Assembly (NCBI GenBank): GCA_021731405.1
Contig: JAKFXN010000003.1
Span: forward strand, 108,676 to 172,675
Reading direction: 5' to 3'
Origin: Candidatus Parcubacteria bacterium
Lineage (GTDB): Bacteria > Patescibacteriota > Minisyncoccia > Phycocordibacterales > UBA918
DNA: 64,000 bases
The position numbers and the translations under genes are program-made. Below, one piece after another: positions 4,539-32,969 of the stretch; within the stretch, counting starts at the first letter, position 1; each line of letters opens with the position of its first letter. The notes under the pieces are model-generated. The model did no database searches and was not told the DNA's origin. It was given only the letters and a program-made list of their open reading frames with translations.

Positions 4539-5300
4539 ATGGACACTATTATACAAATGCTTACTGTGCTCGGCCTGCCTTCGCGTTCAAGTGCGGTCTA
4601 TGTTGATCTACTGGCGCACGGCCCCTCTGCTGCGCGTACGATTGCGCTGCGTCTCGGTATCCCACGTTCGTCACTCTACGACCACGTGAAGCCGCTCCTT
4701 GATCTCGCCCTTGTGTCTGAGCTCAAGACAGGTACCAAAGCAGTTTTTGTTGTGGAGGAAATTAGTAACCTCGATCGGTTAGTCGCTAAGCAAGAGCAGT
4801 CGCTCGCCCTGCTTCGCACCGAGTTCACTAAAGCCAAAGCTACTCTGGCTGAAGCGCAGACGTCTCATGCTGAGCCTCGGATAAAATTTGTCGAAGGCAA
4901 AGCGGGTATAGCCGCACTTCTCTTGGAGATGCTCTGGGATACCAAAAGTGAAATCAAAACGGTCTGGCCATACGAGGCGATGCTTAAAGTTTTGTCACCT
5001 GAAGATCTTGAACTTTTCAATCGTAAACGTATTCGCCAAAACATTGCACTCAAGACCATCTGGACTGGACCTCGGCCAGGAAAGCAGCATCTCTGGCGCG
5101 GCGGCGACTTTAAGGTAGAGCGCAAAAGTGCGCCAGCAAAATATCATGCTGATATGGCCTACAACATCTATGGAGACAGAGTGTCTTTCTTTAGTTCAGT
5201 TGGTGAACAGTATGGCTTTGTGGTCCATAGTCGAGACTTCGCAGCTCTCATGTCGGCACAGTTCGCGGCCTTGTGGGAAGTGTCTAAGGAGGGTAAGTAG
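4539..5300 (+). CDS. TrmB-family HTH transcriptional regulator (start chosen at MDTIIQML)
   Basis: N-terminal winged HTH: LTVLGLPSRSSAVYVDLLAHGPSAARTIALRLGIPRSSLYDHVKPLLDLALV. Confidence 0.5.
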   Translation: MDTIIQMLTVLGLPSRSSAVYVDLLAHGPSAARTIALRLGIPRSSLYDHVKPLLDLALVSELKTGTKAVFVVEEISNLDRLVAKQEQSLALLRTEFTKAKATLAEAQTSHAEPRIKFVEGKAGIAALLLEMLWDTKSEIKTVWPYEAMLKVLSPEDLELFNRKRIRQNIALKTIWTGPRPGKQHLWRGGDFKVERKSAPAKYHADMAYNIYGDRVSFFSSVGEQYGFVVHSRDFAALMSAQFAALWEVSKEGK

Positions 5301-5378
5301 AATCAAACATTCGCGCGAGTCTCGCCAAACTAAAAACTGTGTGGTAGATTCCAAGTAGATTTTTACAGGAGAAATCTC

Positions 5379-5741
5379 ATGTCAAACAGTGTTCTTGCTG
5401 ACTTGGTCCCCGCCACCAATCTTGATGTGTCACGCTTGCCGTGGCTACTTGAGTCGAGCCCTGAGAAAGTCATTGTCCGCAACTTGTGGTTCGTCACCGT
5501 ATCTTTGTTGTCTGACTTTGCCAAACCACCATTCGAGGTGGTTGAAGAAGAGGGCTACTTTGTGCTCCATGGTTTTGATGCCAAAAGCTCTTTGCCAGCC
5601 AGCCTGCGTGTTGTGGAGGACGATACGTTCCAGAACATCCTGCAGTATCGCAATGAGCGCTACCAAATGTGGGGCAGTAGCCCGCCCGGCAACATCCTCT
5701 TCTTGCCTGCCCTTCTTGGTCCAGATCTCAAGCTCATATAA
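5379..5741 (+). CDS. hypothetical protein, 120 aa
   Basis: AGGAG RBS 7 nt upstream. Hairpin terminator follows. No recognisable domain. Confidence 0.4.
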   Translation: MSNSVLADLVPATNLDVSRLPWLLESSPEKVIVRNLWFVTVSLLSDFAKPPFEVVEEEGYFVLHGFDAKSSLPASLRVVEDDTFQNILQYRNERYQMWGSSPPGNILFLPALLGPDLKLI

Positions 5742-5747
5742 GAGCAT

Positions 5748-5780
5748 CCTCAAAAGCAACCCTAACAAGGTTGCTTTTTT
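5748..5780 (+). terminator. rho-independent terminator
   Basis: AAAAGCAACCCTAACAAGGTTGCTTTTTTCAAT hairpin followed by a T-run. Confidence 0.6.
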
Positions 5781-5837
5781 CAATAAAAGTAGTCTAATAG
5801 GCAACAGTTCCGTTCCCTCATTTATAGGAGATATGCC

Positions 5838-6539
5838 ATGCGTACCTTTCTGTCTGTTCTTTTCATTTCACTGCTTCTGGGTTGCGCCAGCAAGCCTGCC
5901 AAGCCAAGTCTGGGAATCATCTTGTTTCCCAAAGAAGTCCTCGTGCCAGCGGTCGGTTCCACAACCGTGAAGCAGTTGACTCGTGACGGCAAAACCCGTC
6001 CACCAGAAGTCATGTTCGTCCGCGAGCATTTGGACGGACGTCCCATCTTTTCGGGTAAGGTCTGGAACCACGAAGGCTCCATGGCCGAGACCGCTTCTGG
6101 TGCTGTAGTTTGGACAAGCGATTGCCCAACTCCGCCTGAACTTTTGGAACCTCCGGTGGTTCCCAACAAGTGTGACTGGACGGTCTGCTATCCCCCGAAA
6201 GACGGAACGACCTATCTGCAGACGGTTCGTTTTTACGTTCCACTTCTGGCTTGTGGTGGGCGCGACGGCACACTCTCGGTTACCACAATCGGCACGGTCG
6301 AGATTCCGGTATATGGCAGGGTCGTACACACCGAAGCCAAGCTTTTGGTGCAAGGTTTGCCTGGGGTGACGTGGCAAAGCTACATCAAGCCCGGCTTTGG
6401 CGAGGTGCACGGTAAGTCAGTCAACTGGATGACGGTGTATGAAAATACCCCCAAGCGCCGCAGTGTGGTCTTCAAGAAAAAGCTAGGTGAAACCGGTGGC
6501 TTCGCCATCGCCAAGAGCGAAGAAGTCCCGCAGGATTAA
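5838..6539 (+). CDS. lipoprotein, 233 aa
   Basis: Signal peptide with lipobox LLLGC|AS. AGGAG RBS. Confidence 0.55.
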   Translation: MRTFLSVLFISLLLGCASKPAKPSLGIILFPKEVLVPAVGSTTVKQLTRDGKTRPPEVMFVREHLDGRPIFSGKVWNHEGSMAETASGAVVWTSDCPTPPELLEPPVVPNKCDWTVCYPPKDGTTYLQTVRFYVPLLACGGRDGTLSVTTIGTVEIPVYGRVVHTEAKLLVQGLPGVTWQSYIKPGFGEVHGKSVNWMTVYENTPKRRSVVFKKKLGETGGFAIAKSEEVPQD

Positions 6540-6552
6540 AATGCGGGAAACA

Positions 6553-6585
6553 AAAGAGCGACTCCAAGAGTCGCTCTTTTTCATA
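6553..6585. terminator. bidirectional hairpin terminator
   Basis: AAAAGAGCGACTCCAAGAGTCGCTCTTTTTCAT between convergent genes. Confidence 0.6.
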
Positions 6586-6589
6586 TTTA

Positions 6590-6901
6590 TTAATCAAAGC
6601 TGCGGTGGACGTCTTCAAAGTTCGTGATCCGTCCTTTTTCGTTTACAAGTATTCCTTCTTTTTTATACAGGGTTCGACGCTTCTTTTCGTGTTCATGCGC
6701 GAGCCATACGCGCCCACCAGCGTACACAATCCGGTGCCACGGTATTGCTCGCTGGTTAGGAGCTTTACTCAAGATACTCGAGATGCTCCGCGAAGCCATC
6801 GCTCCACCACCAGCTGCGCGAGCCAAGTCCCCGTAGGTGACTACGGTCCCTTCCGGGATAGACAGCGCGAGCTCGTACACGATTTGCGAGAAAGGGGACA
6901 T
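6590..6901 (-). CDS. alkyltransferase-like protein (ATL; MGMT DNA-binding domain without the active Cys)
   Basis: VTYGDLARAAGGGAMASRSISSILSKAPNQRAIPWHRIV. The canonical PCHRV is replaced by PWHRIV, as in ATL proteins. Start placed at MSPFSQ. Confidence 0.7.
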   Translation of the reverse strand: MSPFSQIVYELALSIPEGTVVTYGDLARAAGGGAMASRSISSILSKAPNQRAIPWHRIVYAGGRVWLAHEHEKKRRTLYKKEGILVNEKGRITNFEDVHRSFD

Positions 6902-6993
6902 AAGGGAAGTATAGCAAAACAAAAACTCTCGCGAGAGAGTTTTTGTAACGTGAAGCAAGTAGGTTGTATATAGAGTCTGTAAACTCTTGCAAA

Positions 6994-7269
6994 TTACTGC
7001 ATCGACACCTTGAGTGACAAATCAAGAGCTTTGGCAATGCGGCTAAGTGTTTGCAGTGAAGGGTTGCTGTCACCTTGTTCAAGGCGAGAAATAACGGGCT
7101 GACGACTACCAATTGCTTCAGCTAGTTCAGTTTGTGACCAGCCACGCTTAATACGCTCTCTTATAATAGTTTTTACTACCTCATATTCTGCTCCAAGTGC
7201 TTCATACTCAGTTTTTACAACTGGGTGCTTGAGGGCCTTGGTTTTAAATTGTTTAAATGCAGTACTCAT
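6994..7269 (-). CDS. higA: XRE-family HTH antitoxin (HigA-like)
   Basis: GWSQTELAEAIGSRQPVISRLEQGDSNPSLQTLSRIAKALDLSLKV, a Cro/C1-type HTH. Directly downstream of the Gp49-like toxin. Confidence 0.7.
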   Translation of the reverse strand: MSTAFKQFKTKALKHPVVKTEYEALGAEYEVVKTIIRERIKRGWSQTELAEAIGSRQPVISRLEQGDSNPSLQTLSRIAKALDLSLKVSMQ

Positions 7270-7295
7270 AAAACAAATATAACTTATAAGTTATA

Positions 7296-7601
7296 TTACC
7301 GCAAGTCTTCTTTTGCAGTACGTGCTCTTGTTAATTCCTTTTCGAGCGTTTTTTGAGTTTTCTTAATACAAACGTGCAACAAAACGGCCTGTTTCTTATG
7401 GAAGCAGTAAAATATTCTAATCTCTCTAGTTCCATGGATGCGTAGTTCAATTAGCCCATCAGACAGGTGTTTACTGTGCGGCATCCCTAATTCGTTACCA
7501 AATTCTTCAAGTAATTCAATAGTACGAATTGCCTTAGCAATTTCTTTTTCATTGAGCGATTCAAGAAATGTTTCAACTGAATCAAGGAGAATAATTTGCA
7601 T
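7296..7601 (-). CDS. higB: HigB/Gp49-like (RelE/ParE superfamily) toxin
   Basis: ELRIHGTREIRIFYCFHKKQAVLLHVCIKKTQKT fits the phage Gp49-like/HigB pattern. Toxin-first order with the XRE partner. Confidence 0.65.
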   Translation of the reverse strand: MQIILLDSVETFLESLNEKEIAKAIRTIELLEEFGNELGMPHSKHLSDGLIELRIHGTREIRIFYCFHKKQAVLLHVCIKKTQKTLEKELTRARTAKEDLR

Positions 7602-7640
7602 GTAATAAGTATAGCAAACAGGGTAACAAACCTATTCGAG

Positions 7641-8153
7641 CTATAATTTCAGAAATTCTTCTATGAATGCTTTTTCGCGCTCGAGTATAAAGTGACCTTC
7701 AAATTTACCCGGAGTATCGTTCTTCATTTTTTCAAGAACTTCTATTGGTTGCATCCATAAAGTCTCGTGACCCTCTTCGATTTCTCCAGCTTCTAGTTGT
7801 CGTTTTCCAATATCACCTATTGCTTTTGCTACAAAACCATAAGAAATCTGAATCAGCTTGTACTTGTTTCGGTATTCGATGGTAACTCCAAGGGGTCTTA
7901 CAATCTCACATTTACAACCGACCTCTTCAAGGACTTCTCGTTTTAGAGCATCTTCTATATTTTCTCCTTGATTAACACCTCCGCCAGGTAGTTTGTGATA
8001 ACTATAGGTTTTGAGATATTGGGTGGACATTTCGCCCTTCTCATTTAGAAGTATTGCGCGGGCAGATTTTCTTAGTTCATATGATTCGCCAAGTTGTTCG
8101 CCCTCATCAGTCAGCCCCATGCTCTTTTCGCTGATTTCTTTGAGTATTTTCAT
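7641..8153 (-). CDS. NUDIX hydrolase
   Basis: Nudix box GGGVNQGENIEDALKREVLEEVG. Confidence 0.75.
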   Translation of the reverse strand: MKILKEISEKSMGLTDEGEQLGESYELRKSARAILLNEKGEMSTQYLKTYSYHKLPGGGVNQGENIEDALKREVLEEVGCKCEIVRPLGVTIEYRNKYKLIQISYGFVAKAIGDIGKRQLEAGEIEEGHETLWMQPIEVLEKMKNDTPGKFEGHFILEREKAFIEEFLKL

Positions 8154-8218
8154 ATGTGGAATTATATCAAAACATGCCTCAATTGAGTGAGGAAGGGTAA
8201 GGTGATACTCTTAAAGAT

Positions 8219-8560
8219 ATGAATCAAGACCTGCAAACACTCCAGGAGCGAATAAAGCAATTTTGTGCAGATCGAGACTGGTCGCAATTTCATGACCCTA
8301 AAAATCTAGCCATTTCGCTGCAACTCGAAGCTTCGGAGGTATTGGAGTTATTTCAGTGGACTAAAGATAACCAGGTCGTCAAAGGTAAAGAAGGGGAGGT
8401 GGCAGATGAACTCGCGGATGTGATGTACTGGCTACTTATGCTCGCAAATCACTACGATATAGATTTGGTTGAGGCGCTTAGTCAGAAGATGGATAAAAAC
8501 GAACAAAAGTATCCTGTTGAAAAGGCTAAGGGCACATCAGCGAAATATACAGATCTATAG
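8219..8560 (+). CDS. MazG-like nucleoside-triphosphate pyrophosphohydrolase (small, all-alpha)
   Basis: EASEVLELFQW...EVADELADVMYWLLMLANHYDIDL is the MazG/YpjD-type EExxE...DxxDV motif pattern. 2-bp gap to the next gene. Confidence 0.7.
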   Translation: MNQDLQTLQERIKQFCADRDWSQFHDPKNLAISLQLEASEVLELFQWTKDNQVVKGKEGEVADELADVMYWLLMLANHYDIDLVEALSQKMDKNEQKYPVEKAKGTSAKYTDL

Positions 8561-8562
8561 AT

Positions 8563-10572
8563 ATGTCAGAGATTAAAACCTTCCCATTTAGTCAACCAGG
8601 AGTTGAACAAATAAGAAACTACAAGTACGGCACTGATTGGCCAGTCGTCTATTTGATTGAAAATGGGAAGGAGCTTTACGTAGGTGAAACAATTAGAGCT
8701 TACGGTCGTACAAGACAGCATTTAGATAATGAAAAGCGAAGACAGCTTAATACGATTCATGTAATTTCTGACGATGAATTTAATAAGTCTGCCACTCTCG
8801 ATACCGAGTCTTCATTGATTGAGTATTTGGTAGCTGATGGGGTATATACTCTTCAAAATGGAAATGGAGGTTTACAAAACCATGATTATTTTGATCGCGA
8901 GCGTTATCAAGGAAAATTTGAATTATTGTGGAAGAAGCTGCAGGACTTAAAGATTGCAAAGAATGATTTGTTACAAATCCGTAACAGTGATCTTTTTAAA
9001 TATTCACCTTATAAAACTCTCACAGACGATCAGTATTTAATTGCTACCCAACTCGTAGAGCATTTTAAAGAGAATAAAAAACAAACATACGTTATTCATG
9101 GAGGTCCTGGAACCGGAAAGACAATACTTGCTACTTTCCTTATTAAAAAGCTAGTTGATGAAGGTAAAAAAGACATTGCCCTAGTCATTGCAATGGTTTC
9201 TCTACGAAAGACACTAAAGAAAGTCTTTCGAGGTATTCCTGGACTCAGTCCAAATATGGTTATTGGACCTAATGAAGCGGTTGATCAAAAATATGACATT
9301 TTAATAGTGGATGAAACTCACCGACTGCACCAAAGAAGAAATATTCCTAATTACGGAACCTTTGATGTTACTAATAAAAAATTAGGTTTAGGAAACGAGG
9401 GAACAGAGCTGGACTGGATTCTCTCCTCAGCAAATCAGGTAGTACTTTTTTATGATCAGCGCCAATCGGTCCGACCTTCTGATATTTCCGCTAAAAAGGT
9501 TTTGGAAACAAACCCGATTAGTTTTGAATTAAAAACACAAATGCGTGTTAAAGGGGGAGAAAATTATCTTCATTTTATAGATAACCTCTTAGAAAATAGC
9601 GCCGACACGAAAGCAAATTTTACTGACTACGAATTTAAGGTCTATGATGATTTGGGGCAAATGGTAAGTGCTATCAAAGAGCAGGAGAAAGCCCATACAC
9701 TCTCACGTATGGTAGCTGGCTATGCTTGGAAGTGGCTATCAAAAAAGAATCCTACCGTACCAGATATTGTTATTGGGGATACAAAGTTGTTTTGGAATAG
9801 TAGAATTCATGACTGGGTGAATTCACCAAATGCCATTAACGAAGTTGGTTGTATACATACTATTCAAGGGTACGATCTAAATTACACTGGTGTAATTATC
9901 GGTCCGGAAATGTCCTACGATCCAATCAAAAAAGTGATTGTGGTTGATAAATCAAAGTACCTTGATTCAAATGGACATAAAGGGGTCACAGATCCAGAAG
10001 AACTCAGGCGTTATGTTATTAATATTTATAAAACATTACTGACTCGCGGCATTCTTGGAACGTACGTTTACATAGTGGACGAAAACTTAAGAAAATATTT
10101 TAAGGAGGTGTTATCTGGAGAAAGTTTAGTAACTCAAGAAGAGGTGTCAGAAGAAGAGGTTACGCCGTCTCCTTATCAGGGAGAAGTGGTAAAGGTTCCA
10201 CTGTATGACTCAATAGGTTGTGGGGAGCTGATGCTCGCTGATTCAGTTAGTGATGAAACTGTCGATGTGCCAGCTTGGCTTATAAAACCCGGTGCAAAGT
10301 ATTTTGCGCTTCACACTCGAGGGGACTCAATGAATCAACTCGCTATTAATGATGGGGACATTATCTTGTGTCAGAAGAACCTGAATGCAACTAGTGGTAA
10401 TGCGGTCGTGCTAATAGGGGACGACGCAACCCTTAAACAGATTAAGGTAGAAAAAGATGGTTTGGTACTTATACCAAAGTCGACCAATCCGGAGCATAAG
10501 ATAAGAAAAGTGACTATTGACGACGACTTCAAGATTCTAGGAGTGTTTGTCTGTAAGATTGATAGAAACTAG
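8563..10572 (+). CDS. GIY-YIG-like + DUF2075 P-loop ATPase fused to a C-terminal LexA-like S24 autopeptidase domain
   Basis: N-terminal WPVVYLIENGKELYVGETIRAYGRTRQHL (GIY-YIG-like). Walker A GGPGTGKT, Walker B ILIVDETH. C-terminal PLYDSIGCGELMLA (cf. LexA PLVGRVAAGEPLLA cleavage region). GDSMN is the catalytic Ser. DATLKQIK is the catalytic Lys. Confidence 0.7.
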   Translation: MSEIKTFPFSQPGVEQIRNYKYGTDWPVVYLIENGKELYVGETIRAYGRTRQHLDNEKRRQLNTIHVISDDEFNKSATLDTESSLIEYLVADGVYTLQNGNGGLQNHDYFDRERYQGKFELLWKKLQDLKIAKNDLLQIRNSDLFKYSPYKTLTDDQYLIATQLVEHFKENKKQTYVIHGGPGTGKTILATFLIKKLVDEGKKDIALVIAMVSLRKTLKKVFRGIPGLSPNMVIGPNEAVDQKYDILIVDETHRLHQRRNIPNYGTFDVTNKKLGLGNEGTELDWILSSANQVVLFYDQRQSVRPSDISAKKVLETNPISFELKTQMRVKGGENYLHFIDNLLENSADTKANFTDYEFKVYDDLGQMVSAIKEQEKAHTLSRMVAGYAWKWLSKKNPTVPDIVIGDTKLFWNSRIHDWVNSPNAINEVGCIHTIQGYDLNYTGVIIGPEMSYDPIKKVIVVDKSKYLDSNGHKGVTDPEELRRYVINIYKTLLTRGILGTYVYIVDENLRKYFKEVLSGESLVTQEEVSEEEVTPSPYQGEVVKVPLYDSIGCGELMLADSVSDETVDVPAWLIKPGAKYFALHTRGDSMNQLAINDGDIILCQKNLNATSGNAVVLIGDDATLKQIKVEKDGLVLIPKSTNPEHKIRKVTIDDDFKILGVFVCKIDRN

Positions 10573-10679
10573 ATGTACGTGGAGTATTAAAATGAGTTAC
10601 GGTTGTCTATATCCCATGCAGGCCTATTTTTGTAGGTCAGCTATTGATCTATTCTGTCTGATCTGGTTAAGTTGTTTGA

Positions 10680-11144
10680 ATGGCATCGGCTCACTCTTAT
10701 AAAATAACCCTTTCCAACAACAAGACTGAAAAGCAAGCGATTGACTACTTATTGTCAATCGATAAACGGTTTTTGCTTCCAACAAAAGAGGGTAGGAAGC
10801 AACTTCTAAACGTTCTCGGTTTAGATAAGAAATACGCGCGCACCTTTGATTTATTTGTTTTGTCCGGTCACACCAGTGATGAGCAAGAAATTACATTCAA
10901 AGATGTTAAAAAAGTTATTTTGATTGAGCTTAAGACAACTCAAAAGTACCTACCAAATAATCCAAAAGGATTTTTCTTCGGAGCGACGCAAAATGAATTT
11001 GATCTAGCAGAGCAACTTGGAGAGCAGTATAAATTTTGTTTCGTCAGTCTTCATCCAGAATCGCTAGGCTATTCCCTTGTGTCGGCAATTGAATTGGAAG
11101 ACAAAGTTATAAATAAGCGAGTACAGTATCAAATAAATCTATAA
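10680..11144 (+). CDS. hypothetical 154-aa protein, possible PD-(D/E)xK nuclease-fold
   Basis: FDLFVLSG...VKKVILIELKTT resembles a D...ExK motif. It lies immediately upstream of the C5-MTase. Confidence 0.3.
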   Translation: MASAHSYKITLSNNKTEKQAIDYLLSIDKRFLLPTKEGRKQLLNVLGLDKKYARTFDLFVLSGHTSDEQEITFKDVKKVILIELKTTQKYLPNNPKGFFFGATQNEFDLAEQLGEQYKFCFVSLHPESLGYSLVSAIELEDKVINKRVQYQINL

Positions 11145-11231
11145 AGTATTTTGGTGCAATTATAGTAGTAAAACTTAAATATCCCAGGAGTGACTATATC
11201 GTGAATTGATAAACCCTGGCATAATAAGAAG

Positions 11232-12482
11232 ATGTTAAAGTCAACAAATAAAAAACCTAGGGTTTTAGATTTATTTGCTGGAGCAGGAGGTCTCTCTGAG
11301 GGCTTTGTCAGAGCTGGCTGTAATATTGTAGGTCATATCGAAATGGATAAAAATGCTTGTGAGACTCTTATCACAAGAATGGTTTACCACGCACTCCTCA
11401 AAAAGGGAAAAATTGATGAATATAAAAAATATGTGCTAGGAGAAGTTACCAGAGAGGAGTTGATTGAAAAATATAAACTACAAAAAGAGCGGGACTCAGT
11501 AATATGTGCATCTATAGGAGTAGATAACTACAGAAATTTAATAGCTACAATCAAAGAGAAACTGGGGGGTAAAAAACTGGACTTAATCATCGGAGGTCCA
11601 CCTTGTCAGGCTTATTCACATATTGGTCGAGCACGTGATAAAAATAAAATGGCTTCTGACGAGCGTAATTTTTTGTATAAATTTTATGTTGAGTTTTTAA
11701 AAGAATTACTGCCAAAAATCTTTGTTTTTGAAAATGTCCCAGGGTTAAAAACTGCTGCAGGCGGCAAGCATCTTGCGGATATGAGGGCGCTAATGTTGGA
11801 GGCTGGATACGAGACGGAATTGAGCGTCCTTAATACTGTAGATTTTGGTGTCCCGCAAAATAGAAAGAGAGTCATCTTGATTGGTTGGAGCAAAGAATCA
11901 AAAATGAAGGAGTACCCAGATTTTGATAAACTTAAGCTGGTTCGTTCGTATGTTGTCTCGGATGTTTTTTCTAACTTACCTAAATTGAAGGCAGATGATG
12001 GATCTTTGCATGTAAGAGATTTTCAGCAAGGTAGTAGTGTCCCAAGCCAGTTGATGATTAGTGACTTTGATATTTTGATGTCGCACATGACTCGGCCGAA
12101 CAACGATCAAGATTTAGAGATATACAGACATGTGGCTCTGGCTAAAAGGAAAGGTGTTGAGCTTAAGTATAATGAGCTACCCAAGGAGCTTAAAACTCAT
12201 AAAAATGAGCACGGTTTTCTAGATAGGTTTAAAGTTGTCGATCCAGCTGCAAAAGGGTCACATACAATAGTCGCTCATATTGGAAAAGACGGTCACCATT
12301 ACATTCATCCTGATGTTAAGCAAAATAGGTCTATTTCAGTGAGAGAGGCTGCCCGCTTGCAAACATTCCCGGATAGTTATAAGTTTGAGGGAGCTCGAAC
12401 TGCTCAGTTTAAACAAATTGGGAACGCTGTTCCGCCTTTATTTTCAACAATGATTGCAAAAGAGCTAATCAAACATCTTTAA
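11232..12482 (+). CDS. dcm: DNA (cytosine-5)-methyltransferase
   Basis: Motif I DLFAGAGGLSEGF. Motif IV GGPPCQAYS. Motif VI ENVPGL. Motif X QIGNAVPP. Confidence 0.9.
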   Translation: MLKSTNKKPRVLDLFAGAGGLSEGFVRAGCNIVGHIEMDKNACETLITRMVYHALLKKGKIDEYKKYVLGEVTREELIEKYKLQKERDSVICASIGVDNYRNLIATIKEKLGGKKLDLIIGGPPCQAYSHIGRARDKNKMASDERNFLYKFYVEFLKELLPKIFVFENVPGLKTAAGGKHLADMRALMLEAGYETELSVLNTVDFGVPQNRKRVILIGWSKESKMKEYPDFDKLKLVRSYVVSDVFSNLPKLKADDGSLHVRDFQQGSSVPSQLMISDFDILMSHMTRPNNDQDLEIYRHVALAKRKGVELKYNELPKELKTHKNEHGFLDRFKVVDPAAKGSHTIVAHIGKDGHHYIHPDVKQNRSISVREAARLQTFPDSYKFEGARTAQFKQIGNAVPPLFSTMIAKELIKHL

Positions 12483-12487
12483 AATAT

Positions 12488-14662
12488 ATGAAGAAAGTAT
12501 TTAAGCCACGAGCCAGACTACTATTACAGTTAGGAAATCAGCTTATAAAAAATGAAAATATAGCTCTAGTTGAATTAATTAAAAACTCTCATGATGCGGA
12601 TGCAAAAGAGTGCAAAATTGAGTTAATCAACATTGATTCTAAAGAGAATGGAGAAATCATCATTAAAGATGACGGCGTTGGTATGTCTCTACAGGTGATT
12701 GAACAGATATGGTTAGAGCCAGGAGCGGACTTTAAAGACCTTGTACTCAAAGGCAAACAATTGCCACTGAACTTGATTTATGCAGCTAAGCGTACTCCAA
12801 TTGGCGAGAAAGGGATTGGTAGGTTTGGTGTACATAAATTAGGTGATGAAGTGGAGCTGGTTACTAAAGACGCAGATTCTGAGAAGGAAATAGTAGTAAA
12901 AATTAACTGGCTGGATTTTCATGATGTCATCTATTTAGAGGATGCAACTTTTGATGTCGCAGAGAGGAAGCCTGTGATTTTTACAGGCAAGCAGACTGGT
13001 ACTGTAATGACTATACGAAAACTACGTACCTCATGGGATAAAACTATGTTTAAGGAACTGATCAGAACTGTTCTGTCGCTCAATACACCTTTTGCAGAAA
13101 AGACTAAAGATAGTTTTTCAGCTACTCTGAATCTTAGTTTAAAGAATAAAGATCAACAGTTAGAGTGGCAAGAAACAATGCTGACAGTCGAACAGGTAAA
13201 AAATTTATCTTTATGGAAAGTAAGATGCACTATCGAAGGTAATAAAATAAAGAAATTTCACTATGAATTTTTACCATATGCTGGAATGGACAAGCTTTCT
13301 AAGAAAGTGGTTACTGAGAAAAATGCTATTTTCACCAAGTATTATAATCAACTAAGAGACAGCAATAATTTACCATTTGATTTGTCATCACATGAGATTG
13401 GTCCGATTGAAGTTGAGCTTTTTCTCTTTTATCTTGGCTCGAAGGTTCTAAAACTAAGCACATCAGATCCTAGGTTGCTTAATGATTTTATGAAAGAGAA
13501 CGGTGGGGTTAGGGTTTATAGGGGAGGAATGCGCGTTTATGACTACGGGGAACCAGAAGATGACTGGCTAAACTTAGATCAGAAGAGAATAAGTAATGTG
13601 GGAGGGAGCATAGGAAATAAGCTTATTCTAGGTTCCATTTCACTAGAAAGACGCAAAAGTCTTGGGCTAATTGAAAAAACAAACAGAGAGGGTTTTGTGG
13701 AGAACGATTCATATAAAGCATTCAAGCAGTCGCTTTTGCAAGTCATTGCCATTGTCAATCATTTGAGAAATATAGATAAGTTACAAATTAAAGAAATATA
13801 TGAAGGATCAGCACAGACTGAGCCAGTTTTGCATGATGTAGATTTATTGAAGGACATAACAACTGAGAAGATCGCAGATTTTTCTGAAGGATTAACTGAA
13901 GAAAAGAAAAATGAGGTCAATAAATTTAGAGATGAAATTATTGAAGGCTTAGAAGTCATCAAAGAACAATATATTAAAAGCCACGATATTCTTATTAAAA
14001 GTGCTGGTGCTGGTTTAAGTCTTGGGGTGGTAATTCATGAAATTGAAAAAAGAATTAAAGAACTCAGAAGAGTGATAGATGTTGTTGATTTTAATGTAAA
14101 GAAGGTAAAAGAAATAGTTTTATCAATTTCTAAATTAGTTGGTAATTATTCTGTGTTACTAAGTAATACCACTAAAGAAAAAGTACAACTTTCTAAAGTG
14201 GTTGAAGATTCAATATATAACTGCTCATTTAGGTTTGAGGCTCATAAAGTTTCTGTATCCCAGCTATATAAAAAGCATAAGTTAGTCAAAATAAATTGTG
14301 CCACAAATATTATTGTTGGAGCTCTTCTCAATATTTTTGATAACTCGCTCTATTGGTTAAATGCTTATGATATTAAAGATAAAAAAATATTGATTGACTT
14401 TAATGACTACAAAGATGAGATTGGAGTCTTGGTGGCAGATAACGGTAAGGGGTTTTTATTATCGGCAGAGGATGCAATTAAACCCTTTATTTCAATGAAA
14501 AATGGAGGTACAGGCTTAGGGTTACACATTGCCGATGAAATGATGAAGATCCATAAAGGGCGCCTTGTAATAAGGAATTTTAAAGAATTTAAATCTTTAC
14601 CTAAGGAGTTTGAGCAAGGTGCCATCGTAGAGTTAATCTTTAAGAAGAATGAAACTAAATGA
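12488..14662 (+). CDS. hybrid GHKL ATPase: N-terminal MORC/HATPase_c_3-like module plus C-terminal histidine-kinase-like core (H-box + HATPase_c)
   Basis: N-terminal: ELIKNSHDADA, DDGVGMS, GEKGIGRFG. C-terminal: GVVIHEIEKRIKEL (H-box-like), LLNIFDNSLYW (N-box), VADNGKGF (G1), GGTGLGLHIADEMM (G2). Confidence 0.6.
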   Translation: MKKVFKPRARLLLQLGNQLIKNENIALVELIKNSHDADAKECKIELINIDSKENGEIIIKDDGVGMSLQVIEQIWLEPGADFKDLVLKGKQLPLNLIYAAKRTPIGEKGIGRFGVHKLGDEVELVTKDADSEKEIVVKINWLDFHDVIYLEDATFDVAERKPVIFTGKQTGTVMTIRKLRTSWDKTMFKELIRTVLSLNTPFAEKTKDSFSATLNLSLKNKDQQLEWQETMLTVEQVKNLSLWKVRCTIEGNKIKKFHYEFLPYAGMDKLSKKVVTEKNAIFTKYYNQLRDSNNLPFDLSSHEIGPIEVELFLFYLGSKVLKLSTSDPRLLNDFMKENGGVRVYRGGMRVYDYGEPEDDWLNLDQKRISNVGGSIGNKLILGSISLERRKSLGLIEKTNREGFVENDSYKAFKQSLLQVIAIVNHLRNIDKLQIKEIYEGSAQTEPVLHDVDLLKDITTEKIADFSEGLTEEKKNEVNKFRDEIIEGLEVIKEQYIKSHDILIKSAGAGLSLGVVIHEIEKRIKELRRVIDVVDFNVKKVKEIVLSISKLVGNYSVLLSNTTKEKVQLSKVVEDSIYNCSFRFEAHKVSVSQLYKKHKLVKINCATNIIVGALLNIFDNSLYWLNAYDIKDKKILIDFNDYKDEIGVLVADNGKGFLLSAEDAIKPFISMKNGGTGLGLHIADEMMKIHKGRLVIRNFKEFKSLPKEFEQGAIVELIFKKNETK

Positions 14663-15881
14663 TTATAGCGATTTTACTAAAGTTGTAATCATTGATGATG
14701 ACTACAATGAAGGTAATGAAGTTCGGAAAGCACTACTCGGTGCGGGTATTTCATCGGCTTTTTTTCATATATCGTCTAGTCAACCTGAACCTAAAGGTCC
14801 TTATAAAAATGTACGCTTAGTATTCTTAGATTTAGACCTAGACCACCTAGGCGTGCAAGAGAACCCAACTCAAGGTGCCTCAATAACATTGGCTACCCTT
14901 TCGAGGGTCGTAGATAAGAGTAGTCATTATGTTTTAGTATTATGGTCTGCAAAAACCACGAGGCCAATAGCTCGTGAGTTTAAGCGTCAACTGAAGAGAA
15001 CAAAAACAGTGGCAAATCCTATAAAAATTATAAGTTTAGGAAAAAATACTTGTAAAAATACCTCAGGAAGTTATAACTTATCAAAAATTAAGAAAGGAAT
15101 TAATTCTGGTTTAGAAAGCCTTCCCGCCTTCTCAGTCTTTTCAGAAGGAGAGAGGATTTTCGGCAATGCAATCGCTAAAACAATGGTCTCAATTTCGAAG
15201 CGACGTAGTGATCAAACTTTGTCAAAAGTTATTAATTCTTTAGCTAAAGCCAGTGCGCCACGTCCACGTGAACTAGTTGCAAATAGTGCTCTACTCAATT
15301 TCAATGGACTCATTGAAGACTCTATAGCTAGAGAAGTCTTAGCTCATGATTTTGGAGATTTACATTCTAAATTAAATGAGGAAGAGCTAAATCCCCGTCA
15401 GTGTGCAGAATTAAATTATCATTTAATTTTTTCGCCCGATAAGGTTTCTGATAGTGGTCAAATTATTTTTTTAAGAAAAAACAAAAAATTTATTAAAGAC
15501 GTTTTTGGTGACGAAATGAATTGTGAAGCATATAAATCAATGAGATGTTTTGTGGTAGAAGTAACACCGATTTGTGGAAGCGCTCAATCTAACGGTCTTC
15601 GCTATGTCATTCAAGGGGTGATTCATCCTCAGTTCAGAAAAGTAAGAACTAGTAAGGATGAAATTCGTGCAACAAATGTGTCAGGCTATACGTTTAAAGA
15701 CAGCTTTATATATAGCGGAAAAATTTGTCGAATGTCTTTTAATTTAAGATCTTATAGTACTGACATAAAGGATGTGGATTCTGGCGTAGTTAGTGAAAAA
15801 CTTCGAGCACATATTGTGATGGACATTCAACATAAAATCGCCTCTTATATTTCTCGTCCTGGACACTCATTGCTTTACTAG
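14649..15881 (+). CDS. receiver (REC)-like domain protein with unknown 280-aa C-terminal domain
   Basis: KVVIIDDDYNEGNE...VRLVFLDLDLD...VLVLWSAKT resembles a CheY-like fold. The start overlaps the previous gene by 14 nt. Confidence 0.4.
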   Translation: MKLNDYSDFTKVVIIDDDYNEGNEVRKALLGAGISSAFFHISSSQPEPKGPYKNVRLVFLDLDLDHLGVQENPTQGASITLATLSRVVDKSSHYVLVLWSAKTTRPIAREFKRQLKRTKTVANPIKIISLGKNTCKNTSGSYNLSKIKKGINSGLESLPAFSVFSEGERIFGNAIAKTMVSISKRRSDQTLSKVINSLAKASAPRPRELVANSALLNFNGLIEDSIAREVLAHDFGDLHSKLNEEELNPRQCAELNYHLIFSPDKVSDSGQIIFLRKNKKFIKDVFGDEMNCEAYKSMRCFVVEVTPICGSAQSNGLRYVIQGVIHPQFRKVRTSKDEIRATNVSGYTFKDSFIYSGKICRMSFNLRSYSTDIKDVDSGVVSEKLRAHIVMDIQHKIASYISRPGHSLLY

Positions 15882-16006
15882 CCATACACCACCTAGCAAT
15901 ATAGACGACATAGAGTGTTTGCTAAAGTCTTTAGAATTAGTCGCGCTGAATTGAAATACGTTAACTAAGGTTAAGTATCACTTATAAGACAGTTTTGTTT
16001 GGAAGT

Positions 16007-16190
16007 GGCGGAATTGGTCACGAATCACTAAGTATATTTATTCACTTCGTTCCAAATCTACTAAGTGTTCTCGACCCCAGCTCGCTCGCCTCCGGCATCG
16101 CTGCGCTCCTCAATTCCCGACGAAAGCAAAGCAGTTTGCTTTCTCCGCTCCACCATATTAAAAAAATCCCCATGAGGGGAATTTTTAATA
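16007..16190 (-). repeat. tRNA/tmRNA-3'-flank element copy (d), core-less, downstream of ssrA
   Basis: Shares left/right arms with copies at 52331, 53937 and 61925. Proximal CGGGAATTGAG is the reverse complement of the tmRNA T-arm. Distal CAATTCCGCC is a direct copy of the tmRNA 3' segment. Confidence 0.6.
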
Positions 16191-16588
16191 TGGTGGAGAT
16201 GGCGGGAATTGAGCCCGCGTCCGAATCAGGTACCACATGGTGCTTCTACAGTGTGTAGTTACTCCTTTGATTTAAAGCTTATGTCTTAAGAAGAAACAAA
16301 ACAACATAAACTCGAGTTGTTACAAGCTTAAACATATGCGACAACGGCGCTTATGCCCAGAGCCTCGTGGCTATTCTACAACCGTGCCGTATGAGGCGTT
16401 TAACACGATCGCATCGATCCGGGTCTAGGCGAATGGTTACGCTAGAGCGGGAGCGAATCCAAACGCGTTAGCGTATGGACTTGGTATTGCTTTGTTTGCA
16501 AATACAGATGGAACCTCTTTACGAATTGATTTCCAGTTTTCGACACTGCACACAATGGGTAGGCTAACCGTCGATGCCTAGCATCCCC
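16191..16588 (-). ncRNA. ssrA: tmRNA (SsrA)
   Basis: 5' GGGGAUGCUAGGCAUCGACGG... and 3' ...GCGGGCUCAAUUCCCGCCAUCUCCACCA form a tRNA-like domain. Tag ORF GCA-AAC-AAA... encodes ANKAIPSPYANAFGFAPALA*. SmpB is adjacent. Confidence 0.85.
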
Positions 16589-16726
16589 AGAAAGCACCGA
16601 AGTGTTTTCTCAGTTGAGTGAATACTCAACTATATGGAGAAAGGGAAGTAACTAAGTACTTCTATGCTTTCTGGGAATATCGTGTACGGGTGATGACGAA
16701 TCAAGGTCCAGATTCTTTCGTGGTTG

Positions 16727-17173
16727 TTATTGACTCTTCAAGATGCGGTCAATTTCGCGTTTATTGTCTCGGTCTTTAAGCGTTTGGCGCTTATCAGCTT
16801 GTTTTTTACCGCGAGCAAGCGCGATACCGAGCTTGATAGTACGTTTATTATTATACCACTTTAAAGCCACTATTGTCAACCCTTGCTTCTCGCTTCCAGT
16901 CTCCAGCTCATCGAGCTGTTTTCGGCTTAAAAGCAGCTTTCTGGCTCGTTCTGGGTCGTAGCTTTTTGGGGTATTGGCAACTTGGAAAGCGGTTACTGAA
17001 GCATTCACTAAAAAGGCTTCTCCACCACGAATAATGACATAAGCGCCATTTAAGCTGGCTTTTCCAGCCCGAATGGCCTTTACTTCGTAGCCATGCAAAA
17101 CAACCCCCGCTTCGTATTGTTCGAGGAATTCGTAGTCAAAGTACGCTTTTTTGTTTTGGATGTAATCAGCCAT
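16727..17173 (-). CDS. smpB: SsrA-binding protein SmpB
   Basis: YFDYEFLEQYEAGVVLHGYEVKAIRAGKASLNGAYVII. Adjacent to ssrA. Confidence 0.9.
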   Translation of the reverse strand: MADYIQNKKAYFDYEFLEQYEAGVVLHGYEVKAIRAGKASLNGAYVIIRGGEAFLVNASVTAFQVANTPKSYDPERARKLLLSRKQLDELETGSEKQGLTIVALKWYNNKRTIKLGIALARGKKQADKRQTLKDRDNKREIDRILKSQ

Positions 17174-17302
17174 ATAAAGTATGACGTTCTAACTATAGAT
17201 GGTATTACAACTTAGAGCAATTGGGCTTTTTTGGACAGTCTGTGGGCGTAGGGCGGTTTGCTCGTAAAGTGTGTTTTTTTCTGTATAATGCACCGTACTA
17301 TG

Positions 17303-19399
17303 TCAAATTTAGAAAACGAAAAGAAGCCAGAGAATAACGAAGAAAAACCAACTTCGGAAGTGCCTTCAACTGAGTCTACACCAGCACCTGAAGCTGAGAA
17401 AAAGGCACCTGAGCCTAAGAAAGCTCATAGTCATAATCCACTGCCGCGTTTGCGCGAGGTGGGGCACAATATGCCGATTGGTCCAGGCAACTTCTGGAAC
17501 AATATGCTTTCAACGGTACTCCTCTTGGTGCTGGTTATGATGGCGTTTAGTTACCTGACTGAATCAAAGGTGCAGCCAGAAGAACTTTCTATCTCTCAGG
17601 TGGTTACACAGGTGCAGGCTGGGGAAGTGAAGGAGATTGTCGTGCGTGGTAGTGTGCTTGAAATTAACTATAACGACGAGACTCGTGTGCGGGGTGAAGC
17701 AAAGAGAGAAACAGACGCTTCTGTTTCTGAGTCGCTTTCAAACTTTGGTGTGACTACCGAGCAGCTAGCTGCTATCGAGATTGATGTGCAGCGAGAGACT
17801 GGCTTTGCGTATTGGTTTGGACAATTTGCACCATTCCTTTTCCCGTTACTCTTTTTGATCCTGATTGTTTGGTTTTTCACTCGTTCAGTGAAAGGAGCAG
17901 GTATGCAAGCGCTCAACTTTGGTTCGAGTAAGGCTCGGATGATTGATCCAAATGACACTGCTCAAAAAGTGACCTTTAAAGATGTGGCTGGAGCAAAAGA
18001 AGCGAAGCAAGAACTGGAAGAGATTGTAGACTTCCTCAAGAACCCAAAGAAGTTTTTGGATATTGGAGCGGAGATTCCTAAGGGTGTGATGATGATGGGT
18101 GCGCCAGGTACTGGAAAGACACTGCTTGCACGAGCGGTAGCAGGGGAGGCGGGAGTGCCATTCTTCTCAATCTCTGGTTCTGAGTTCGTAGAAATGTTTG
18201 TGGGTGTGGGTGCGTCTCGAGTACGTGATCTGTTCTCAATGGCGAAGAAAGCTGCACCAGCTATCATCTTCGTTGATGAAATTGATGCGGTGGGACGAGT
18301 GCGTGGTACGGGAGTGGGCGGAGGAAACGATGAGCGAGAGCAAACTCTCAACCAGATCTTGGTTGAGATGGATGGCTTTGAGCCAAATGCCAAAGTGATT
18401 GTGATGGCTGCCACCAACCGTCCTGATGTGCTCGACCCAGCTCTCCTACGCCCTGGTCGTTTTGACCGTCGGGTGACTATCGACCTGCCTGACCGCAAAG
18501 ACCGCGAAGATATCCTTAAGGTACATGCTCGCAAGAAGCCACTGCAGGATGATGTGAACCTAGAGATTATTGCGATGCGTACCCCAGGTTTCTCGGGTGC
18601 TGACCTTGCTTCTTTGATGAACGAAGCGGCTATCTTGGCTGCGCGTGAACTTCGAAAGAAAGTGGGACAGTTTGATATTATTCGCTCAATTGAAAAGGTG
18701 ATGCTCGGTCCAGAACGAAAGAGTCATGTGCTCTCAGGTCGGGAACGACTGATTACCGCGTACCACGAAGTTGGACACGCGCTTGTGGCTTCGGTGCTTC
18801 CGTATGCAGACCCGGTACAAAAGATTTCGGTTATCTCACGAGGGAGAGCAGCGGGGTATACCCTTAAGCTTCCTGACGAAGATCGACGGATGCACACGAA
18901 GAAAGAATTCCTTGATGACATTGCGATGACCCTTGGTGGATACGTAACTGAAGAGATGGTGTTTGGTGACCTTTCAACCGGGCCAAGTAACGATCTGCAG
19001 GTGGTAGCAAACCTCGCTCGCGATATGGTGACGAAGTACGGTATGAGTGCGCTTGGTCCTGTCGCTCTTGAAGGTACAGGGGGACGAATGATTGGTGGAG
19101 GAGTTAGTGAAGACCGTGGCTACTCACCACAAATCGCCAAAGCGATTGATGACGAGGTATCTCGGATTATTCAAGAAGGAAAAGATCGAGCTAAAGAAAT
19201 TCTCACCAAGTACCGACCGGCGCTTGATGTGATCTCTAAGCGACTAGCAGAAGTGGAGACACTCGAACGAGAAGAGTACGAAGCGCTCTTGAAGCGAGAA
19301 GGGGTGGAGATTCAGGATGCCTTTAAGAAGCAACGAGAAGAAGACGCGAAGCTTGGCGATCCAAGTAAGTTGCTTGAGTCTGGAAGTGTTTTGGTCTAA
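17303..19399 (+). CDS. ftsH: ATP-dependent zinc metalloprotease FtsH
   Basis: [22 protein letters not shown], second region of homology, HEVGHAL zinc motif. Start placed at MSNLENEKK after a TATAAT box; the ORF extends to 17258. Confidence 0.9.
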
Positions 19400-23136: not shown

Positions 23137-23138
23137 AG

Positions 23139-23212
23139 TCCGTCCTCTTGGATTCGAACCAAGGACCGCAGAGGTATAAGCTCTGTGCTCTAACCAACTG
23201 AGCTAAGGACGG
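23139..23212 (-). tRNA. tRNA-Ile, anticodon UAU (loop CUUAUAC)
   Basis: Manual fold. Acceptor CCGTCCT/AGGACGG, D GCTC-AGTTGGTTA-GAGC, anticodon stem CAGAG/CTCTG, T GGTTCGAATCC. No CCA encoded. Confidence 0.65.
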
Positions 23213-32865: not shown

Positions 32866-32882
32866 ATTGTTTTTTAACTTAG

Positions 32883-32969
32883 CGGAGGATGTGGGATTCG
32901 AACCCACGAGAAGTTTAACCCTCTGGCGGTTTAGTAAACCGCTGCCTTCAGCCACTCGGCCAATCCTCC
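32883..32969 (-). tRNA. class-II (long variable arm) tRNA, Ser-like (G73), anticodon loop UUACUAA (anticodon ACU by standard numbering)
   Basis: Manual fold. Acceptor GGAGGAT/ATCCTCC, D GCC-GAGTGGCTGAA-GGC, anticodon stem GCGGT/ACCGC, 18-nt variable arm, T GTGGG-TTCGAAT-CCCAC. Confidence 0.55.

Follow-up and report, generated by a model that had tools for sequence, protein, structure and literature searches.

We have analysed a stretch of 64,000 nucleotides (nt) from Candidatus Parcubacteria bacterium (GCA_021731405.1, JAKFXN010000003.1, positions 108,676–172,675 of the forward strand), which is called the window below. An earlier note, made from the letters of this DNA, had singled out a Dcm methyltransferase gene and the two genes behind it as a two-component-like restriction or defence module. 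These three open reading frames (ORFs) form a cassette on the plus strand, arranged head to tail:

11232–12482, plus strand: C5 cytosine DNA methyltransferase (Dcm), 416 amino acids (aa), PF00145 and TIGR00675
12488–14662, plus strand: 724-aa hybrid protein with a MutL/MORC-type GHKL ATPase, a middle module and a histidine-kinase core (DHp-like helix plus CA domain), HATPase_c_3 and HATPase_c
14649–15881, plus strand: 410-aa receiver protein, from the ORF and a family profile

The layout is as the earlier note had described it, with a gap of 5 nt between the end of Dcm and the start of the 724-aa ORF and an overlap of 14 nt between the latter and the 410-aa ORF, and all the motifs that it quoted are present in the translations. 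The first gene is a clear methylase, with a Pfam match to PF00145 (DNA_methylase) at an expect value (E) of 5.6e-62 and an NCBIfam match to TIGR00675 (dcm) above the cutoff (E 6e-54); its best matches in PADLOC are the generic MTase, DrmMII and DruM models. As argued below, we tentatively read the cassette as a conflict module in which a methylation-linked phosphorelay would control a toxin-like effector.

A MORC-type ATPase fused to a histidine-kinase core

The second gene encodes a kinase-like protein with the following parts:

12545–13087, plus strand: N-terminal GHKL ATPase, residues ~20–200, from HATPase_c_3 and motif residues
13088–13897, plus strand: middle module, residues ~201–470, at the position of the MutL/MORC transducer, from invariant residues
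14036–14041, plus strand: codons of H517-E518, the predicted phospho-acceptor His and Glu, in the H-box VVIHEIEKR (codons checked)
14285–14659, plus strand: CA domain of the kinase core, from HATPase_c, with N615/N619, D651xGxG655 and G674xGxG678

The conservation of this protein was evaluated in a set of 30 relatives, which are 40–92% identical to the window protein. For the N-terminus, the proposal of a HATPase_c_3/MORC-type ATPase is borne out: Pfam reports HATPase_c_3 over residues 24–155 (E 6.8e-17), and the profile of the 30 relatives matches MutL, MORC2/3 and Hsp90 in the PDB over positions ~11–137. The ATPase motifs E29/N33/D36, D61xGxG65, G106xKGxG111 and T170-G-T172 are all kept in 30/30 relatives. 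This N-terminus also matches the BbrUII/HgiDII restriction-enzyme family NF050001 (E 7.7e-18), over residues 12–193 only and with 64.4 bits against a family cutoff of 550, and the only PADLOC match of the protein is a weak one to a Type II restriction endonuclease (REase_II), again on the ATPase.

Behind these intact GHKL motifs, where MutL and MORC carry an S5-fold transducer, the downstream module is without sequence similarity to solved structures. It contains a series of residues that are invariant in 30/30 relatives, namely R349, Y353-G-E355, D359-W360, R367, R388 and E396-K-x-N-R-E-G-F403.

The C-terminal histidine-kinase core is supported as well. Pfam finds HATPase_c over residues 612–719 (E 2.5e-11), and N615, N619, D651xGxG655 and G674xGxG678, that is, the N, G1 and G2 boxes, are invariant throughout the 30 relatives, as is the H-box H517-E518-x-x-K521. 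H517 is located ~100 residues upstream of the N box, and EnvZ-type kinases have a similar spacing. The CA domain matches HK853 with an E of 3.7e-5; with the family profile, HK853, ZraS and ThkA are recovered from the PDB over ~515–690 at E values of about 1e-10 to 1e-7, in an alignment that takes in the second DHp helix and the CA domain. For HK853, the profile match covers positions 529–690 at an E of 4e-10. In NCBIfam, the C-terminal ~200 residues match many sensor kinases far below the family cutoffs. An hhalign comparison with an EnvZ sequence gave a probability of 96% for the G1-G2 part only, and no significant alignment for the DHp region. Since no long hydrophobic stretch is seen in the 724-aa translation, for which no transmembrane predictor was run, the protein is predicted to be soluble.

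The kinase-like family is large, with more than 3,397 matches, and the top 120 all have the same two-domain architecture. One member, in Flagellimonas maritima (CP030104.1, locus L030, 6001–8580), carries an extra N-terminal EcoRII-N DNA-binding domain (PF09217, E 2.4e-16) and sits in an otherwise standard Dcm-kinase-receiver operon. The fusion of this domain in front of the ATPase hints that DNA may be what the sensor sees.

A divergent receiver domain

The third gene encodes a protein for which three parts are distinguished:

14649–15053, plus strand: receiver-like domain, residues 1–135, with D16, D17, D61 (codon 14829–14831), S100 and K132
15066–15434, plus strand: helical linker or bundle, residues ~140–262, from the AlphaFold2 (AF2) model, with near-invariant E168 and invariant N256
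15435–15878, plus strand: C-terminal alpha/beta output domain, residues ~263–410, with a predicted MazF/Kid/CcdB-like fold, from the structure model

As a single sequence, the 410-aa protein has no match in Pfam, NCBIfam, PADLOC or the PDB. The family around it provides more information. A word-indexed search had retrieved only 17 relatives, and an exhaustive profile search, covering 1.84 billion representatives, has yielded 1,769 clusters (50% identity) at E<=1e-3 and 1,375 at E<=1e-10, nearly all of full length. Among 54 diverse relatives, the pocket residues expected of a receiver are kept: D16, D61 and K132 in 54/54, D17 in 47/54 (otherwise Asn), and Ser or Thr at position 100 in 52/54. 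The predicted phospho-acceptors, whose conservation the earlier note had proposed to check, are kept without exception in both proteins (D61 in all 54 relatives here, H517 in all 30 of the kinase-like protein). In addition, the profile of the N-terminal 140 residues has 33 matches in the PDB at E<=10 (best E 0.03), and every one of the 33 is a response regulator, with the acidic pair and D61 in register.

On the other side, neither the 410-aa protein nor its isolated N-terminal domain matches Pfam PF00072, and an hhalign comparison of the receiver region with a CheY sequence was not significant. According to the earlier note, the two-component interpretation would fail if profile searches scored neither HisKA/HATPase_c in the kinase-like protein nor REC in the 410-aa protein; the C-terminus of the former does score as HATPase_c, while the latter scores no Pfam REC. 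We consider the Pfam test too strict, because the structure, the catalytic residues and the family-profile search all point to a receiver, and we have accepted the N-terminal domain as a divergent receiver despite the failure of PF00072.

An output domain with a toxin-like predicted fold

We have modelled residues 140–410 with AF2 from an alignment of 63 sequences (pLDDT 90.9, pTM 0.83). The model consists of a helical bundle, with helices at model positions 5–121, followed by an alpha/beta domain. For the latter, the closest match by two independent methods is the MazF/Kid/CcdB group of toxins, at fold level only: Foldseek ranked E. coli MazF first, with probabilities of 0.91, 0.85 and 0.72, target TM-scores of 0.52–0.56 and an E of only 0.1. 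At the sequence level, Pfam PemK_toxin does not match the output domain, and hhalign against E. coli MazF and a four-member MazF/Kid alignment gave a probability below 1%. The resemblance to MazF is thus apparently one of predicted fold, with homology unproven.

Several differences from MazF, Kid (PemK) and CcdB can be listed. The output domain of the window protein shows no significant sequence similarity to them and conserves another set of residues, with the signature (T/S)-P-x-C309-D-x-A-Q-x-K-x(3)-R, G323, D392-I-Q394 and R403-P-G405; its model adds an N-terminal strand and helices. Moreover, unlike MazF and CcdB of type II toxin-antitoxin systems, it shares one polypeptide with a receiver domain, and a separate gene for an antitoxin is missing. 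In neither the 724-aa nor the 410-aa protein could a nuclease fold be recognised, and we have detected none of the PD-(D/E)xK, HNH, GIY-YIG and PLD signatures in the two. With moderate confidence, the model suggests a toxin sooner than a transcription factor or a classical nuclease.

Not all kinase-like proteins are associated with this output. The receiver partners of the kinase-like proteins of an Enterobacter mori plasmid and of a second one in Pedobacter are unrelated to the window output domain. Because other kinase-like proteins pair with unrelated output domains, several effector types exist, and the sensor appears to have been combined with several different effectors. In loci L025 (4974–8196) and L004 (11235–14121), kinase-like proteins with the two GHKL domains have receiver partners with lengths of 357 and 314 aa, respectively. 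These partners have weak Pfam Response_reg scores, and their output domains are unrelated to that of the window.

Gene order, co-evolution and methylase exchange

The three genes are found in this order in phyla that are unrelated to one another and also on viral contigs, as became clear from the comparison of neighbourhoods that the earlier note had recommended. The receiver gene lies directly 3' of the kinase-like gene in 21/21 independent genomic loci, genomic and metagenomic, from Patescibacteria, Gracilibacteria, Gammaproteobacteria, Cloacimonadota, Bacteroidota and Alphaproteobacteria plasmids, and the third genes of distant loci are homologous (hhalign probability 98.8–100%). In IMG/VR, the kinase-like gene is found on 29 viral contigs; it is of full length on 18, and the receiver gene follows in all 18, with Dcm no more than 6 kb away in 15 of them. 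Dcm is directly 5' of the kinase-like gene in 19/22 informative loci. A Vsr gene is near 9/22 loci, and none is present in the window. Further neighbours of the relatives include AbiE, Abi_2, integrase and conjugation genes.

We have further compared the pairwise identities in 16 complete triads. The Spearman correlation is 0.84 between kinase and receiver, 0.35 between kinase and Dcm, and 0.45 between receiver and Dcm; these pairwise values are not independent, and p-values would not be meaningful. Overall, kinase and receiver co-evolve and their adjacency is obligate, and the linkage of the cassette is far beyond chance.

The closest relative, locus L023, is informative about the methylase. 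Its kinase and receiver are 92% and 85% identical to the window proteins, while its Dcm shows 57% identity to that of the window, dropping to 22–30% in the target-recognition region. The methylase has been exchanged between the two cassettes with the signalling pair unchanged, and the pair thus does not follow the specificity of the methylase. Since Dcm was swapped and the pair was kept, the kinase-receiver pair is probably not what recognises a specific DNA sequence, and Dcm is a frequent but exchangeable partner of it. The L023 cassette lies ~7 kb from smpB and ftsH, and the genes in between differ from those of the window.

Genomic setting and neighbouring genes

In the window, the cassette is the tail of a low-GC stretch at ~7000–16000 (GC 0.34–0.39 vs ~0.45), an island that extends to ~16190. 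The island adjoins the 3' end of the tmRNA gene, next to which smpB and ftsH are located:

16191–16588, minus strand: tmRNA gene, 3' end facing the cassette
16167–16180, no strand assigned: bidirectional terminator-like hairpin between the cassette end and the tmRNA 3' end, from a consensus scan only

Borders of the island were looked for and not found: neither an integrase gene nor an att-like direct repeat of the tmRNA 3' end is present. Rfam over 5000–17500 gave no family besides tmRNA. The remaining island genes have no counterpart in any of the related loci.

The small ORF of 154 aa upstream of Dcm (10680–11144) had been suggested as the cognate nuclease of the cassette. This proposal has to be given up: the ORF is absent from 24/24 related loci, and it travels with another module. 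That separate module (8219–11144) comprises a MazG-like pyrophosphatase (8219–8560), a 669-aa SLFN-group-3/DUF2075 helicase (8563–10572) and the 154-aa ORF, which is NOV_C-like with a match below the Pfam cutoff. In the helicase, GIY-YIG is weakly matched at the N-terminus, and an S24 peptidase of the LexA/UmuD type is present at the C-terminus. Two other loci (L027 and L029) have these three genes in identical order, followed by an Mrr-type gene instead of Dcm; PADLOC gave only weak Nhi, AbiO and PDC-S41 matches for the module. It may be an undescribed defence cassette, and its helicase could be activated by self-cleavage.

The island also carries, on the minus strand, an HTH_3 antitoxin-like gene (6994–7269), beside it a Gp49/HigB-like toxin gene (7296–7601), and then a NUDIX hydrolase gene (7641–8153) with a weak PADLOC PDC-S07 match. 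The pair and the NUDIX gene are further defence or addiction genes of the island. The adjoining segment 6540–6990 is GC-rich (0.52); its only ORFs overlap one another and lie on both strands, and Rfam gave no family at gathering score. This segment could be the remnant of a gene, or else an RNA gene that has escaped recognition. Elsewhere in the window, ARAGORN reports a tRNA-Ile with anticodon UAU (23138–23212) and a tRNA-Ser with anticodon ACU (32882–32969), both anticodons being uncommon in bacteria.

Relation to known systems

The architecture is neither rare nor new. The earlier note had called the fusion unusual, which does not hold in view of the family sizes given above, and the arrangement was described by comparative genomics in 2021 (Bellieny-Rabelo, Pretorius & Moleleki, Genome Biol Evol, PMC8011034), in silico and without experiments. 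That study reports a soluble kinase-like protein with HATPase_c_3, a His-Glu box ('HEF_HK', PF19191) and HATPase_c, which is linked in 91.6% to a receiver-like protein ('Response_reg_2', PF19192). The latter has no other known domain, and its output domain was given no fold or role. C5 methylases upstream and Vsr nearby were noted as well, and the authors related the system to the paraMORC ATPases (Iyer et al. 2008). Their seed protein is KS44_RS10365 from Pectobacterium.

The window locus shares the architectural traits of these pairs, i.e., two HATPase domains, an H-box, an adjacent receiver with Asp-Asp/Asp/Thr-Ser/Lys, and an upstream C5 methylase; the taxa overlap too (Agrobacterium, Rhizobium, Flavobacterium, Hymenobacter, Bacteroidota). 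We have looked for the two Pfam families with models whose presence in our Pfam copy is unconfirmed. PF19191 gave no match for the window protein and three relatives, either at full length (E<=1) or with DHp segments (E<=10), and PF19192 matched 0/54 diverse relatives at E<=0.01 and not the isolated N-terminal domain at E<=10. Because neither family was ever matched, the locus has been filed under the architectural kind and not under these Pfam families. What the present analysis adds are two leads, the MazF-like output fold and the exchangeable methylase.

MORC and paraMORC GHKL ATPases have been described in restriction-modification operons (Iyer, Abhiman & Aravind 2008, PMC2292703). Like the window protein, the paraMORC and BbrUII/HgiDII proteins have an N-terminal MutL/MORC-type ATPase with intact motifs, and they are likewise encoded beside cytosine methylases and Vsr on mobile elements. 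The difference is that their ATPase comes with helicases or recognisable nucleases, in the same protein or in a neighbouring one, whereas that of the window comes with a histidine-kinase core and a receiver protein.

The nearest validated analogue, by concept and not by sequence, is Detocs (Rousset et al., bioRxiv 10.1101/2023.01.24.525353). Its protein families are unrelated to the window proteins, and PADLOC gave no defence-system model for the receiver protein. Detocs reportedly employs a His-Asp phosphorelay in immunity, and the partner to which its receiver is fused is a toxic effector and not a transcription factor. Its sensor is said to have a TPR-type N-terminus, and the system reportedly includes a separate buffer receiver and an ATP nucleosidase as effector, with neither a methylase nor a MORC-like ATPase. 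In a 2026 paper, HATPase-plus-REC systems are only among the unvalidated predictions.

Proposed function and alternatives

Based on the above analyses, the reading that we favour, if tentatively and short of an even chance, is that the cassette is a three-gene, methylation-linked, two-component-like conflict module for defence and/or addiction, in which a methylation-guarded phosphorelay controls a toxin-like effector. In such a system, Dcm would mark the resident DNA. The 724-aa protein would be the sensor, whose GHKL ATPase and middle module would engage DNA or the methylase, with the methylation status or the arrival of unmodified DNA as the signal. The C-terminal kinase domain would respond to the sensed state by phosphorylating H517 of the same protein, and the phosphoryl group would pass from H517 to D61 of the 410-aa receiver domain. 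The MazF/CcdB-like output domain would then be switched and would act as a toxin-type effector, and the outcome would be growth arrest or attack on RNA or another target (abortive infection or post-segregational killing) and not classical DNA cleavage. Among these elements, we infer which signal is perceived, in which direction phosphorylation works and with what effect, and what the output domain does biochemically.

The phosphorelay is suggested because the kinase core and the receiver pocket are intact and the two genes are always adjacent and co-evolving. The tie to methylation and conflict is suggested because the kinase-receiver pair is linked to Dcm and Vsr, is carried by islands, plasmids and phages, and has defence genes nearby. 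The earlier note had spoken of a phosphorelay-regulated restriction or abortive module. Of this, the methylation-tied, two-component-like module has stood; 'restriction' is unproven, as there is no nuclease fold and the output looks toxin-like.

Several results weigh against the favoured reading. PADLOC-DB v2 has no system-specific model for the kinase-like or the receiver protein, and in the literature we have found no experimental or later functional study of the architecture. The middle-module profile has no match among PDB sequences, that is, no recognisable fold, and this module could itself be the catalytic part. A sequence-specific DNA reader was not found in the window kinase-like protein.

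A bolder version is more doubtful. The family may represent a new, nuclease-free class of methylation-guarded immunity or addiction, in which a MORC/MutL-like clamp would read the resident mark and a phosphorelay would activate the MazF/CcdB-like toxin domain, so that unmodified DNA or loss of the methylase would lead to arrest or death. The exchangeable methylase itself would then possibly be the specificity subunit of a nuclease-free system.

Two further explanations seem unlikely to us, and to about the same degree. The first, which is the one favoured in PMC8011034, is a regulatory two-component system without a toxin: an intracellular cue, such as nucleotide levels or the state of DNA, would cause the receiver to tune the methylase or a linked restriction-modification system.

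The second is a two-polypeptide, ATP-dependent restriction enzyme, with the GHKL domain as motor or clamp, an endonuclease hidden in the output domain or the middle module, and phosphorylation that licenses the cleavage of unmethylated DNA. The N-terminal match to BbrUII/HgiDII and to the PADLOC Type II REase model would fit such an enzyme, as would the existence of the EcoRII-N fusion, the richness of the middle module in invariant acidic and basic residues, and a Dcm and Vsr linkage like that in paraMORC restriction-modification operons (PMC2292703). However, the restriction-enzyme matches are limited to the ATPase domain and stay far below the family cutoff, and the four nuclease signatures named above are missing from both proteins. 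The methylase swap between near-identical pairs also fits a sequence-specific nuclease badly, unless the methylase supplies the specificity.

It is very improbable that the cassette is an accessory of very-short-patch repair, in which the MutL-like ATPase would help Vsr at T:G mismatches arising from 5-methylcytosine deamination and the phosphorelay would report damage. E. coli MutL stimulates Vsr, the N-terminal ATPase here is MutL-like, and Vsr lies beside 9 of the 22 relatives; but the window and more than half of the loci have no Vsr, and neither a toxin-like output nor a mobile, sporadic distribution would be expected of a repair factor. Finally, that the genes are chance neighbours or unreal ORFs, for which nothing speaks except the lack of annotation of the third protein, is refuted by synteny, with full-length ordered homologues in Patescibacteria, Bacteroidota, Pseudomonadota, Cloacimonadota and viral contigs, and we give it practically no weight.

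Implications

The instance in the window adds little beyond a divergent member in a small-genome bacterium. The value of the finding lies in the family, which is a large, mobile and testable target that is absent from PADLOC; its receiver proteins alone form ~1,800 clusters at 50% identity, spread over numerous phyla and also present on phage-like contigs. Should the phosphorelay operate as in the favoured conflict module, this would be a large family joining epigenetic self-marking, a MORC-type ATPase and two-component signalling, three subjects that are mostly treated separately. Next to Detocs, it would be a second case in which His-Asp signalling serves immunity directly. It could also reveal how the methylation state of DNA is sensed by a MORC-like clamp, a question that eukaryotic MORCs pose as well.

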